Assembly (NCBI RefSeq): GCF_006345805.1
Contig: NC_043004.1
Span: 65,720,001 to 65,784,000 of the forward strand
DNA length: 64,000 nt
Reading direction: 5' to 3'
Source: Octopus sinensis
Lineage: Eukaryota
The notes under the pieces were generated by a model. It was not told the DNA's origin and made no database searches. It saw only the letters and a list, made by a program, of their open reading frames with translations. Positions 9,080-61,475 of this stretch are shown here, piece after piece. Numbering within the stretch: the stretch's first letter is position 1; every line of letters begins with the position of its first letter. Made by a program: the position numbers and the translations under genes.

Positions 9080-10533
9080 TAAGTTAATTAATTAATAAAG
9101 AAAAGTAGTAGTAATAGTACATTTACGATCGTTTCTGTTTACCAGAATGCATAGACATCTGTAGCGGTAAGAAGAGCGAAAACATAGCGATACATTGGTA
9201 AGGAGAATAAAGACATAGTATGGTGAGTCTTACATTATAGTAGATTTCTCAGCTGCAAAGTGGATGTAGGATGGAGGTTATTTTGATCCGGAGTCCCAAG
9301 TTTAACTAAGTGCATATTCTGGCTAGACTTTTCACCGGCGATGTAAAGAAAGGGGGTTAATTCAAACTCATGGTGGAAATGGAGCTAACTCTATCCGGAT
9401 TACTCAGTCTGGGTTGAGTAAGGAATTTACGTGTCTTTGGGACATAAAGGTCAAGGAATTTCGTTGTAATGAAAGAAGCCCTGTGTAGGGGTAAAATAAT
9501 GTATTATGGGATGTGTAAAGCGAGTGGGGGTTGGGAGGTGAATGTTAGCGTGTAAGTAGTTTAGGTGGTTCCTGGCTAAATGGAATTATGTTGATGAAGA
9601 TGCCAGCGTACGATTTGTACAGGGTCAAGCGGCTTTACCGATACTTGGAAAAGACAAAGAGGCCTAAAAGTAGACAAAAAGTATTGTTCTCATATTTTCT
9701 ATTAAGAAGAGGTGGTTTAGCCGGTAGAAATTCTAGTTGTTCGGTTAAGCAGAAATCGCACCCTCTATTGGTAGTGTTGTAAGAAGATATTTTTGTGAGT
9801 ATGCGCCATTCTAATCTATATTCTATATTTTGTCATTGAGCTCCCAAATATTGCTACTAAGCACTCTTGAATTTGCCTTCCTCCTATTTCTGAAGCTGGA
9901 TTGATGTGCGTTGTACCTAAGTACCATTTGGTCTTTCGTGGCTCCTATATAGGATTGTATATGGCTATTTTTGTGTACGTCACATTGGTAAACTACGTTT
10001 TTAGTCTTACATTTATTAGAGAATTGGCACTTACTTCTATCTCTGCAGCCACATAAATTATTAGGTATATCTGTGTTCGTGTTGTGTTGTGGGGGGCTAT
10101 TACTACTCCGGTCTTTGTCTATGTTACTATGAGGCGCTTCATTAGTGGTGGGATTTGTTCTATTAATCTGTTGGCTGTTTCATTTATTGTTCCTCATTTT
10201 CCAAGCTTCATAGAATGTGTCTAGATTTTTAAAATTATTAATCGAGGCTATGATGGTAGCTAGGTTACTAGTCAGGCTGTGGCCTACTCTAATTTTATTC
10301 CTAAATATTGCTGCATATTTATTATTTACGTTTAAGTGTATATCTATTAGTTTCATTAATGAGCGAACTATGTTGGATTTGAGGTGCATGGTGATAGGGA
10401 TTACGAGCCCGAGTTATCACTATTCATGTATAGAAACTACCGTCATTGTTTGTAAGGCGTGTGGAAGTATAGTCTTATTGGGGTCATTTCTGTATGGCTT
10501 ATGTGGACTCAATGGCCTGTTGTTATGGTTTTT
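9080..10533 (-). mobile_element. Penelope-like element (Naiad-type) 3' part: linker, GIY-YIG endonuclease pseudogene and 3' UTR
   Basis: Minus translation ...KSNIVRSLMKLIDIHL...AIFRNKIRVGHSLTSNL...CGCRDRSKCQFSNKCKTKNVVYQCDV...YIGAT...RYNAHQSSF...LSSNIWEL...WRIL...CDFCLTEQ...LLNRKYE (endonuclease ~9635-10055), frameshifted. Confidence 0.85.
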
Positions 10534-10536
10534 CCA

Positions 10537-11017
10537 ACCAACATATTTTAATAACCATAAGGAAACCCATAATATCGCACTAGATAAAGCAGTATTTTAA
10601 CAAAATAATTAAATACCTAGACCTTAATCACTATACAAATAACCTAAATAACAGAAATCCACACGATAATACAATTAATACTAAGCACACACAAGGCGTT
10701 AATACAAACTACATCAACAATAAGAACAGTATAGATAAGCTCAACAAAAATAATAGCAATAGAAACAATGTTAAGTCCCATATACAATTCACCAATAATA
10801 TTACAAACAACAACATGAATACCAACAATGCGATAATCAATAAAATTAACAACATTATCAAAACTAATAACACGAATTATAAAAATAAGTTGAAAAGTAA
10901 TAATAGCTATAATAAGAATAATATAAACCTACACATCGATAAGAATAAAAATAAAGAGCCCCATTGCAAAACGATAATTTTTTTAAAAACCATAACACCA
11001 GGTCATTGAGTCCACAT
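10537..11017 (+). mobile_element. Inverted upstream segment of the same Naiad-type PLE (RT thumb end plus Asn-rich linker)
   Basis: PTYFNNHKETHNIALDKAVF resembles the PLE thumb motif F..A...YN.AL.KSGY; ends in a 33-bp segment duplicated in inverted form at 10501-10533. Confidence 0.65.
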
Positions 11018-11219
11018 GAAACATAAACAACGTAGACAGACAGCCAATAACTGATGAAGAGTGGTTCTTTGTGTTACTTGTCCTGTTTTCCATTTGTGTC
11101 TCTCGTTTGCGTATTGACATTCATTTGTTATCGTAGTTCATGTTGTTTACTGTTGGTGACGCCCTGACAAATATATGCATATGGATATATATATATATAC
11201 ATAGATAAACAGATATACT

Positions 11220-58443: not shown

Positions 58444-58856
58444 AGGTGAGCAGGCAGAACCGTTTGCACACCGGGCGAAATACTCAGTGGTAAATTTCGT
58501 CTGCCATTACGTTCTGAGTTCAAATTCCGCCGAGGTTTACTTTGCGTTTCATCCTTTCGGGGTCGATTAAATAAGTACCAGTTATGCACTGGGGTCGAGA
58601 AAATCGACTTAATCCATTTCTCTGTCCTTGTTTGTCCTCATTGTGTTTAGCCCCTTGTGGGTAGTAAAGAAATAGATATTTCGTCTGTCGCTACGTTCTG
58701 AGTTCAAATTCCGCCGCGGTCGTCTTTGCTTTTCATCCTTTCGGGGTCGATTATACAAGCACCAGCTACGCACTGGCGTCGATGTAATCGACTTAATCCC
58801 TTTGTCTGTCCTTGTTTATCCCTTCTATGTTTAGCCCCTTGTGGGCAATAAAGAAA
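58444..58856 (+). mobile_element. SINE with tandemly duplicated body
   Basis: ttacgttctgagttcaaattccgccg.ggt...catcctttcggggtcgatta...agccccttgtggg occurs twice. Confidence 0.88.
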
Positions 58857-61389
58857 TATATATATATATATATATATATATATATATATATAATATATAT
58901 ATATAATATATATATATATATATGAATGTATGTCCTTGTGTATTTGTTATATGCAATATGATTTTTAGTCTGTGAATAAAAATATGCATATTTGAATATA
59001 TCTGTGTATTGGTGTAATTATACTGTAAAAATATATGATATAATATAATATAACAAAAATTGAAATAAATATAATCCAACAAACTGTTTCGACTCATATC
59101 CAGTAGTAAATTTATAAAAATTCCCATTTATGAATATGAGAGTCCTCAGGTTAATATTTTATTGGGTTTTTTTTTCTATATGTAATTTAGGTCGGCAAAT
59201 AGAATCTCGAACATCGGTCCAAAGTGTGTGTTTGAATAATATGAATTCCTCGGTTTTAAATTATACATTCATAATGATCCCTCTTGCTGGCTTCAATAAA
59301 ATGCCTAGAATATATAAGTTACGTTTAACTATGCGAACTAAAGATGTATTGTGATAAGACATATAGAGATTCACACATAAGACTGAGGTTTCAATTCTCG
59401 TCTGAAGAGTTATTTACGGTTTCGGCCAATGAAATCTATTTCAGGTTTATTCCTTCAATTTTTCTAGCGAAAATGTTCTTTAAGCCAACCAGTATAATGA
59501 TCAGCGTCGAGGTAATGCCACTGCATTTCAAGAGTCAGTCGTGAGTCCAATTATCATCACAAATACATAAAGAGGAATGGAACCAGCAACGGACTGCTTC
59601 ATCTTGACCTTTTTTCTTTAATGTTCTGTTATATTGTTTGCACCAGTGATCTGTCACATGCCTGGTGTTAAAAAAGTAGATTCCATATCGATATGTGTAA
59701 TCGTGTTTACAATTTCATATTACGTATTTTGTTACAATTACAACTCTATTCAATTTCGTATATATATATATATATATATATATATAGATATATATATATA
59801 TATATATATATATATACACATACATATATATGTGTGTCACACATATACATACATGTAAGCATTGTTATGATTTCTCGCCAAAACATGCGATCTATTCATT
59901 ATAATGATTTAATAAGACTATAAACCTAATATTATTAGAGGAAATGATTGAATCACCTCTGCTCTGTGCACATAGACGTTTACTCATACATACAACCACA
60001 TGCAAACACGTTGCACACATATACACATACTGTGATAAGGACATCAGAAATATATATGTATGTGTGTGTACACGTATGTCTCTCTCTCTCTCTTTCTCTC
60101 TCTCTCTCTCACTCTCTCTATATATATGTATATATATGTGTGTGTGTGTATATATATATATATATATACACATACGTACATATGTAAGCATATATATATA
60201 CATATATATACATATGTATACATACATATATCTATCTATTTATATATTCATATATATGTATGTGTATACATCGTATGTGTATGTGTGTGTATGTGTGTAT
60301 GTTGGTGTGTGTGTGTATGTGTACAAGATGCTACGTATGGACGTGTAGCCTTGCCATTTAATTCCACAGATATTATTTATGCAATAGAGATACACTTTCC
60401 AGATATAATTGCCACACGCTGGTGCTACGCTGTCTCCGAATTACGCTGGATTGAATTTATGACATTGTACGTCTCTTGCATACTTCTCCTTCAGGCTCGC
60501 TGGCTTTCTGTCGACGTGTGTGCCTCTATTAAAAACAATAAACAATCTTCAGAAACCTTATAAAGAAATACATAATTTAGATATTATTATTTCAATCAAG
60601 AGAGAAGTCAATCCAAAGCGAACTCTTGTCGATAGATCCAATTTCAATTAAATCCCTTCTCGTGTCCATTACTGAATGGTAAAATGAAATTGATGTAATA
60701 TGAAATTACAGATGAAATGGCTGTCAACTGTTGTAGGCGTATATCGTTTCGAGGTGTTAAATTGATCTCTTCCAAGATTTCTCGACATGATGACTCCTCA
60801 CGTTAATCATTCATTATAAATGGTTTTTACACGGATACGGATATGTATCATAATATACGTATGTATGTTTGTATGAATGTATATATGCCTGTATGTATGG
60901 TTTTCTGCATATATATAACCATACTTTCATGTATGCATGCTTATGCATATGCGAGAAAATGTATGGAACCATATGTGTGTGTGCACGCTTGTATATGTGT
61001 GAATGTGTGTGTATATATGTATGTCATTATTCACTTTATTTCAAGATGTGTTGCCAATAAAAAAACAATCGGTTTCTAACCTAGATCCAAGGCTCCTTCT
61101 TTGGAATTTCAACATCAACAACAGGGTATTTTGTATGTATGTATGTTTTATGTATGTATTCTCATGCATATAATTGCATATCTAGACATGATTTTATATA
61201 TTCAAGTGATAAACTTCTGGAAAGTTTCACAGTTGTACTGATGGATTGGGTCTGTAGTCTATTTATGAATGTATGTATATATGCATGTATGTATGTGTTG
61301 GTTACATGTAGGGAGACTGTCTTATGTACGTATACTCATATATATATATATAAATGGAGTTGAACGCAGTTGTTATTCAAATTCTTTTA

Positions 61390-61475
61390 CTTTCGACATA
61401 TGTTTAGAAGACAACATTGGTTTTATTACAAAGGAATAAACGGTGTAAAATAATGTAATCTTTTCATCAGGAAAG
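61390..61475 (-). ncRNA. Decayed hammerhead motif (G12U)
   Basis: cuuuc-CUGAUGA-aaaga..ucuuc-UAAA-cauaug-UC-gaaag. Confidence 0.55.

Follow-up and report, generated by a model that had tools for sequence, protein, structure and literature searches.

Two-armed hammerhead retrozyme insertions in Octopus sinensis as likely records of Penelope-like copying of one RNA onto both ends of a DNA cut

This analysis concerns a 64,000-nucleotide stretch of the Octopus sinensis genome (NC_043004.1, positions 65,720,001 to 65,784,000; hereafter the window) and the families of non-coding, hammerhead-bearing tandem repeats that it contains, which were followed through the rest of the genome. An insertion often consists of two divergent arms in a (TA)n microsatellite, each of up to at least 16 monomers; one arm stops at a site A, the other at a site B, 60-105 nt further on. 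This two-armed A/B pattern likely records a Penelope-like element (PLE) copying one RNA onto both ends of a DNA cut. In the reading favoured here, to which a probability of about 0.68 is given, the repeats were inserted by a PLE enzyme twin-priming at its two start sites on one RNA. Two questions are named as open in PMC8557442 and a 2026 preprint (bioRxiv 10.64898/2026.07.22.740005): how PLEs come by their inverted copies and tails, and whether the arrays of retrozymes date from the insertion or grew afterwards.

Two fixed sites at the insertion ends

In the family F545 the ends lie ∼194-204 nt (A) or 291-296 nt (B) from the hammerhead cleavage site, directly on TATA. This anatomy was first read in the 39 best-scoring stretches, a sample biased to long arrays in which the majority of insertions are two-armed and divergent, and the bias was removed by a search for exact TA-joined ends, with one spelling of each end counted: genome-wide there are 974 A and 318 B ends, and none with reversed-pattern controls. 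In C1 and the opening 58 Mb of C2, the 25 pairs of F545 ends that lie no more than 12 kb apart are without exception divergent and A+B. Sixty of the 75 unpaired ends in C1 were then examined. A typed partner was found for 38, invariably of the opposite type (38/38), and the remaining 22 are single arms, gaps or arrays that run past the fetched stretch; four further unpaired ends are A+B, and the last 11 of the 75 stand outside the count. Taken by locus, 69 of 99 F545 loci are two-armed, comprising 61 A+B, five cut by the fetch limit, three other and none with two ends of the same type, where independent choice of ends would give 37-50% A+B.

The other families place A at ∼163-202 and B at ∼232-306 nt from the cleavage site. 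Their two-armed loci were scored as A+B in 11/15 (F506), 17/20 (F364), 5/8 (F583) and 7/17 (F533) cases, the rest being off-site or cut. A young coding PLE family of Neptune type was scored as well: its open reading frames (ORFs) measure 880-1040 codons, its two ends are separated by 57 nt, and 20 of 20 insertions are A+B. At their ends the non-coding families and this coding PLE of the octopus genome obey one two-site rule. The insertions also carry the remaining marks of PLE insertion, namely 5′ truncation, an inverted copy, two 3′ ends (the tail) and a microsatellite target. TA is found on the 5′ side of many single arms as well, which speaks for a (TA)n target that was there beforehand and against addition of the repeats by the enzyme. 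The initial annotation of the window had already described inverted layouts in (TA)n; the A+B rule was not part of that description.

The two arms of one insertion

Variants fixed in one arm recur in the other in 43 of 44 cases, including all 12 of the rare ones. The substitution distance between arms equals that within them (0.52% each) and lies below the 1.2% found between loci. Arms that are not nested either way occur in 14 of 58 insertions; there the second arm cannot have been copied from the first complementary DNA (cDNA), which excludes simple fold-back for these 14. (L063, L108 and L125 were dropped from the arm-length counts as calling artefacts.) B arms end near site A in 12 of 48 cases against 6.3 expected (p=0.018, one of six windows tested). 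The inner ends of the arms are often joined on 1-4 shared bases or on a small palindrome; junction microhomology of at least 2 nt is present in 19 of 28 cases, against 19% at random, a figure that BLAST end extension may inflate and that is only suggestive.

A shared RNA element around site A

In F545, F583, F506 and F533 the stretch closed by a predicted 9-bp helix holds a hairpin, site A and another, small hairpin, and a second, AU-rich hairpin precedes site B. Sites A and B each lie ∼10-17 nt after a CCCU-like motif. The helix was predicted by RNAalifold from an 11-sequence alignment of the four families: 98 of its 99 cells are paired and five pairs are altered on both sides, whereas slid controls are 18-56% paired. 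None of 500 shuffles reaches its pairing or covariation score, in a test that is inflated by the relatedness of the sequences. The same enclosing helix can be seen by eye in a further family, named after its window site at 13621 (locus L350). F364 and the Neptune-type family have shorter tails without CCCU motifs, which makes more than one partner lineage likely. The covarying helix is a candidate recognition element.

The repeat families

Five non-coding tandem families are recognised (F545, F583, F533, F506 and F364), with the 13621 family as a probable sixth. Their monomers span 364-582 bp (582 bp in F583), a wider range than the 364-545 bp first reported for the window, with a GC fraction of 0.32-0.43, and arrays range from dimers to more than 17-mers. 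F545 and F583 are 59% alike across 349 columns; the other families align in short stretches only. Candidate genomic places number 1413 for F545, 3097 for F533, 1960 for F506, 2516 for F583 and 2239 for F364, together with 691 for the 13621 family, which has a monomer of ∼540 bp and is tandem in L350; in each family the best 40 candidates, out of 691-3097, were scored. These 1413-3097 candidate places per tandem family and the exact ends show copies dispersed genome-wide, which fits mobility. Within the window, copies were compared by masked self-BLAST, since (TA)n swamped the repeat finder.

No in-line PLE ORF occurs in any of 219 loci of the five families (0/219) and no LTR-type (long terminal repeat) layout was found; a PLE protein match is present at five of the 219, in each case beyond the outer end of the insertion. 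The five families are very probably non-autonomous PLE-type hammerhead retrozymes, a known kind. The initial reading of the window as a set of non-autonomous, tandem, PLE-mobilised elements in (TA)n holds for these five and probably for the sixth. It does not extend to the hammerhead at 9118, which is the ordinary end of a coding PLE, and is doubtful for the family of the site at 49788, of which 25 loci yielded no tandem copies.

Pieces of the families are present as contigs in three runs guessed to be RNA, and the monomers, when folded as circles, are predicted to be more stable than crude shuffles (z −2 to −9.6), a calculation that does not by itself show circles. No RNA record holding the family was found, which counts neither way. 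A transcription start near position 440 of the monomer was considered and set aside, since the pile-up of inner ends at that point is due in part to the alignment breaking at an insertion that the older subfamily carries. A search of a phage collection gave no match. A possible source array of F545 is formed by L036 and L102 (G000:C19:41996978 to beyond 42008000), with more than 17 units in one arm. At L034:4635-4680 an F545 A arm abuts an inverted A-type end of the 49788 family, in either a chimeric two-armed event or a later insertion.

Hammerhead motifs in the window

A strict type I pattern (stem I of at least 4 bp, CUGANGA, GAAA, a short stem III and UH) finds ten sites in the window, at 13621, 23010, 25153, 47791, 48306, 49795, 53141, 53685, 54226 and 54725, that at 49795 being the site given earlier as 49788. 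Shuffling of the 51.6 kb of non-simple sequence leaves a mean of 0.05 strict motifs (maximum 1 in 200 shuffles) and block-shuffling a mean of 0.1 (maximum 2 in 100 shuffles). Set against these 300 shuffles, the motifs are confirmed as real. The initial annotation's count of at least 13 well-formed type I hammerheads comes down to these ten, and the sites at 14153, 14319 and 38237 are core variants.

The cores at 14153 and 14319 read CCGAUGA (U4C), a trait of a subfamily represented by 34 F545 cores against 227 intact ones. At 38237 the core is UUGACAA, with a compensatory U3-A8 pair that is present in 42 of 44 F364 copies. The U3-A8 pair is described in PMC3088659 as compensatory and the core that carries it as active; U4C is said there to weaken, and no mismatch to be better tolerated than U-U at the opening of stem II. 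Stem II is irregular across the motifs and opens with U-U in F545; at 23010 it starts with a canonical G-C. Stem I differs from family to family and pairs in every one, as first described. Intact cores are found in F583 and F506 units and the U3-A8 form in F364 units; the hammerheads of the older F533 and 13621 families are often decayed.

When eight motifs were folded alone, only that at 23010 clearly beat its shuffles (z −2.5). Such instability of single motifs is expected of dimer-type hammerheads, as described in PMC4209133. Among the 150 of 450 Rfam matches listed for the window there is no hammerhead, these matches being microsatellite-driven miRNA noise and one tRNA, and at the gathering score Rfam returned nothing, hammerheads included, in eight loci. 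Of four decayed hammerheads reported earlier, two are upheld: 9118, at the 3′ end of a coding PLE of Hydra type, and 61390, a remnant in which GAAA has become UAAA. The motif at 13825 lies inside the same monomer as 13621; that at 57714 matched no family and is unconfirmed.

Coding Penelope-like elements

The PLE remnants reported in the window are of two types, a Hydra-type piece at 9638-10413 on the minus strand and a Neptune-type piece at 14763-15422 on the plus strand. Both were matched by tblastn with intact ORFs and neither by Pfam; the first is 34-48% and the second ∼54% identical to an intact ORF. A 960-aa ORF at L090 has RWK-like and DKT motifs, a CxCX5C linker and no CCHH, together with a hammerhead and a (TA)n target. 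Judged by motifs against the clade text of PMC8557442, L090 and window 9014-10413 belong to the Hydra clade. The ORF at L093 carries a C-terminal GIY-YIG with a CX2-5CxxC linker and CCHH, and by motif only it and window 14763-15422 are assigned to the Neptune clade. Neither remnant in the window shares the terminal structure of the families, so the suggestion that these very remnants mobilised them is not borne out.

The Hydra-type ORF of L090 (4693-7572, minus strand) is unbroken over its 960 codons, has a hammerhead upstream and contains asparagine-rich inserts that recall those described in rotifer Penelopes. The young Neptune-type PLE (L093, L283-L312 and L333-L348) is abundant, with 8035 candidate places, and its 3′ end has a hammerhead-like motif, CUGAUGC rather than CUGAUGA, and an internal TA tract. 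Candidates for a coding partner of the families, drawn from low-identity Hydra-type matches, Neptune elements and tail-anchored loci, turned out to be unrelated neighbours in the same TA tract.

A proposed mechanism and its alternatives

In the mechanism proposed, an array would be transcribed and its hammerheads, with their short and mostly palindromic stems III, would cleave as dimers, by analogy with known type I behaviour, to leave multimeric or circular RNA. A PLE protein may then bind the conserved structure 140-300 nt past the cleavage site, where the covarying helix lies, and the PLE endonuclease would cut both strands in the (TA)n tracts in which the insertions are found. One 3′ end would prime at A and the other at B, never both at one, as the pairing of ends suggests and as a dimeric enzyme might impose. 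Both cDNAs would run through up to at least 16 monomers before their inner ends were joined, by a presumed joining step, into the junctions now seen; a single arm would mean that only one end yielded cDNA. The best reading of the short arrays is that they were made at insertion itself.

The anole PLE studied in vitro cleaves both strands and extends them, starts at two sites on either side of the tail and is predicted to form a dimer (PMC11167929). A bolder version of the mechanism is put forward tentatively, with the balance leaning somewhat against it: the PLE reverse transcriptase (RT) would be an obligate asymmetric dimer docked on a conserved multi-helix RNA, one subunit at A and one at B. 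It would copy a ribozyme RNA, multimeric or circular, onto each of the two ends of a single cut, and the inverted copy, the tail and the retrozyme arrays would be a single event. In that case PLE mobilisation in trans would have, in the covarying helix, its first defined structural recognition element.

Several observations weigh against copying at two start sites of one RNA. F533 includes a clear B+B insertion, L405 (the one true B+B beside seven A+B in a B-anchored sample of 21 loci), and an off-site end in 10 of its 17 two-armed loci. Insertions of A+A type are possibly hidden among the single arms, since a very short A arm is indistinguishable from (TA)n. The anole study reports, in the same text, no difference of start site between the strands. 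The covariation comes from 11 sequences in four families, and one of its five measures is not above shuffles. No coding PLE sharing the families' tail was found among ∼80 PLE-bearing loci of Hydra and Neptune type, nor any coding partner in 21 tail-anchored loci, a sampling far from exhaustive. To these points are added the symmetric junctions, the variant register of two loci and the structure of the longest array, each of which is taken up below. L405 (1070-1700), the sole two-armed B+B insertion observed, has a short A-ended piece beyond a TA tract.

The symmetric junctions, found in 16 of 58 insertions, mostly have B = A + ∼92 nt and most lie on small palindromes. They look as if both enzymes had stopped at one point, and are explained equally well by a single cDNA that folds back or switches to its own strand, with the endonuclease resolving the product at the other site; self-priming is proposed in PMC3846280 and an endonuclease-made tail in PMC8557442, as far as these texts go. 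A collision model on a monomer circle was also tried and fits only some of these junctions. Fold-back is further favoured by L053 and L055, whose minor variants align from the junction or at a 3-unit offset instead of from the outer ends, the register expected of copying back; from this it follows that A and B are not always taken in the same unit, and in these two loci the template may have been mixed and multimeric, or it may have been switched, or conversion may have come later. Fold-back does not account for the 14 of 58 insertions with arms that are not mutually contained, and, with the longer arm being A in 24 loci and B in 37, it needs a second rule to force the opposite end; moreover, both sites are RT start sites in vitro in the anole element (PMC11167929, main text). 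As a general explanation fold-back is therefore unlikely, and twin priming on one RNA is preferred.

Satellite-like growth, in which single monomers insert and arrays expand later by unequal crossover, is the scenario discussed in the text of the 2026 preprint. It is suited to L036, the longest array, whose variants form an a-b-c-a-d higher-order pattern across more than 17 units, as is typical of later expansion, and to the shortness of unselected insertions (median total 545 bp; 7 of 35 with an arm longer than 836 bp). Multi-unit arms nevertheless stand to either side of the inversion at dozens of scattered young loci, their A/B ends exact and their variants common to both arms, and crossover explains neither the inversion nor the A+B rule, which leaves this scenario improbable as the source of the pattern. 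Given L036 and the register of L053 and L055, a circular template is a possibility; period-6 and period-3 patterns seen at the outset weakened or became irregular under stricter calling, and no claim of multimeric circles is based on them.

The initial annotation itself raised the possibility that the monomers are just the pseudo-long terminal repeats (pLTRs) of a full-length coding PLE. This is true of the site at 9118 and could be so for the 49788 family, and a coding element might have escaped searches that scored the best 40 of 700-3100 candidates. The perfect head-to-tail arrays of up to at least 16 units without an ORF, and the count of 0/219 given above, make it slightly less credible still than later crossover. 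Assembly artefact is the least plausible explanation, and very improbable. The units do carry many indel errors, and L053/L054 and L407/L417/L418 are duplicated loci; an artefactual mirror, however, would repeat both end and flank. These insertions have unlike flanks and two ends set apart by a fixed 60-105 nt, and a B end joined to TA is found also in contigs of other runs (X14, X16).

From the pairing of A with B, the arms that are not nested and the variants held in common comes a clear prediction for the existing in vitro system: if twin priming by a PLE enzyme is correct, the two strands of one cut target should use different start sites. The conserved helix offers a concrete element to mutate. 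Two-ended, site-fixed writing of RNA into DNA by a relative of telomerase would be of interest to genome-writing work.

Insertions and other features of the window

Two F545 insertions are present. The larger has a left arm of ∼2.7 monomers (52948..54401, minus strand) that ends at site A in (TA)n and holds hammerheads at 53141-53193, 53685-53737 and 54226-54278; its right arm (54399..55064, plus strand), with a hammerhead at 54725-54777, ends at site B in (TA)n, and the arms overlap by 3 nt at the junction. The smaller joins an A arm (13959..14264, minus strand; hammerhead 14153-14204) to a B arm (14259..14658, plus strand; hammerhead 14319-14370) in a symmetric junction on AGATCT, both hammerheads having the U4C core.

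Single arms represent three other families: F583 at 22998..23292 (plus strand, site A end, hammerhead 23010-23100), F506 at 24990..25590 (minus strand, 1.2 monomers, site A end, hammerhead 25153-25211) and F364 at 38005..38394 (minus strand, site B end, hammerhead ∼38237-38282 with the U3-A8 core). F533 has a left arm at 47526..48309 (minus strand, site B end, hammerhead 47791-47863) and a right arm at 48307..48486 (plus strand, hammerhead 48306-48372), the outer end of which is lost in an assembly gap at 48498-48597. A second F533 copy, a two-armed stub without hammerhead (25719..25920), consists of a B arm at 25719-25832 (minus strand) and an off-site arm at 25838-25920 (plus strand).

The copy of the older, related 13621 family occupies 13505..13935 on the minus strand, with its hammerhead at 13621-13695, and contains the 13825 motif. 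A stub of the 49788 family, which has two 3′ ends ∼65 nt apart, lies at 49752..49871 (minus strand, hammerhead 49795-49855). The broken Hydra-type PLE covers 9014..10413 (minus strand), with linker and endonuclease at 9638-10413 and its 3′ end, including the decayed hammerhead at 9118, at 9014-9624; the broken Neptune-type remnant (14763..15422, plus strand) runs from thumb to endonuclease. The decayed hammerhead in which GAAA reads UAAA lies at 61390..61475 (minus strand). At 35730-35915 a small palindrome between TA tracts has one arm ∼70 nt longer than the other, the same two-end signature as in the families, and no valid hammerhead.

Other repeats include PIF1-type helicase fragments at 20776-22873 (Pfam PF05970 and PF21530), probably a Helitron remnant, and, at 18542-18895 and 55564-56010, a Mariner-type transposase fragment (PF01359) and a Tc1-like HTH (helix-turn-helix) fragment. 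A tRNA match above the Rfam gathering score (29742-29813, plus strand) sits between SINE-like (short interspersed element) repeats. Many copies of a SINE-like repeat, with microsatellites on their flanks, lie at 11214-11612, 12606-12989, 17487-17887, 44857-45054, 46971-47430 and 49901-50527. A 184-bp repeat has two tandem copies ahead of a TA tract at 58494-58863 and relatives at 41797-42317; no hammerhead motif was found in it.

Comparison with known systems

In L1 twin priming, two primers from one cut use one RNA, and the 5′ part of the copy comes out inverted; the place of second priming varies, and it is where the first cDNA ends. In the octopus families both sites are fixed, and B arms stop near site A only modestly above chance.

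Animal non-LTR retrozymes were defined by Cervera & de la Peña (2020, PMC7229834), whose text names PLEs as candidate mobilisers, and the preprint of Li, Clavereau & Pollet (2026, bioRxiv 10.64898/2026.07.22.740005) links retrozymes to pLTRs in vertebrates; according to its text it sampled no mollusc, favours later expansion by unequal crossover and found cleavage for one of nine predicted elements. The concept of a PLE-mobilised retrozyme is already published in these two works. The octopus families resemble their retrozymes in being tandem, non-coding and low in GC, in carrying one type I hammerhead per monomer, in having many families per genome and in occurring together with PLEs, by which mobilisation was proposed. 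Monomers measure 364-582 bp here, 150-450 bp in the text of PMC7229834 and 51-972 bp in that of the preprint; expression, cleavage and circles are shown in PMC7229834. Neither text, when searched by term, yielded an account of inverted two-armed arrays or of microsatellite targets, nor did the preprint yield a 'tail'.

PLE insertions as described in the texts of PMC8557442 and PMC3846280 have an inverted, 5′-truncated copy, lie in (TA)n targets and often bear a tail of 30-40 bp at one of their ends. Endonuclease-bearing PLEs and the octopus families have in common the head-to-head inverted arm, the extension at one end, palindromes at some junctions and the (TA)n targets, as in Neptune, Hydra and Naiad. 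With 57-105 nt the present tails are longer than the 30-40 described, and what those texts treat as optional or 'often at one end' is counted here as a near-obligatory asymmetry. Both arms are multimeric here, unlike the PLE insertions described, for which self-priming on an antisense template was proposed. Neither an A+B rule nor PLE twin priming is stated in the literature consulted and the families are undescribed there, although Repbase, Dfam, older papers or supplements may hold them.

Differences from the anole Poseidon element PAc (Frangieh et al. 2024, PMC11167929) are that PAc shows no strand difference in start site, within-event pairing being outside its main text, and that its start sites are not homologous to the target, whereas 2-4 TA bases are shared with it here. 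According to that main text PAc resembles the octopus insertions in having two internal RT starts that bracket the tail, in the cutting and extension of both strands, in an AT-rich target and in a predicted dimer. To this known kind of element the octopus families add the A+B rule, counted in non-coding and coding elements alike, a set of insertions (a quarter of the cases) for which fold-back is excluded, and a helix that is a candidate for recognition.

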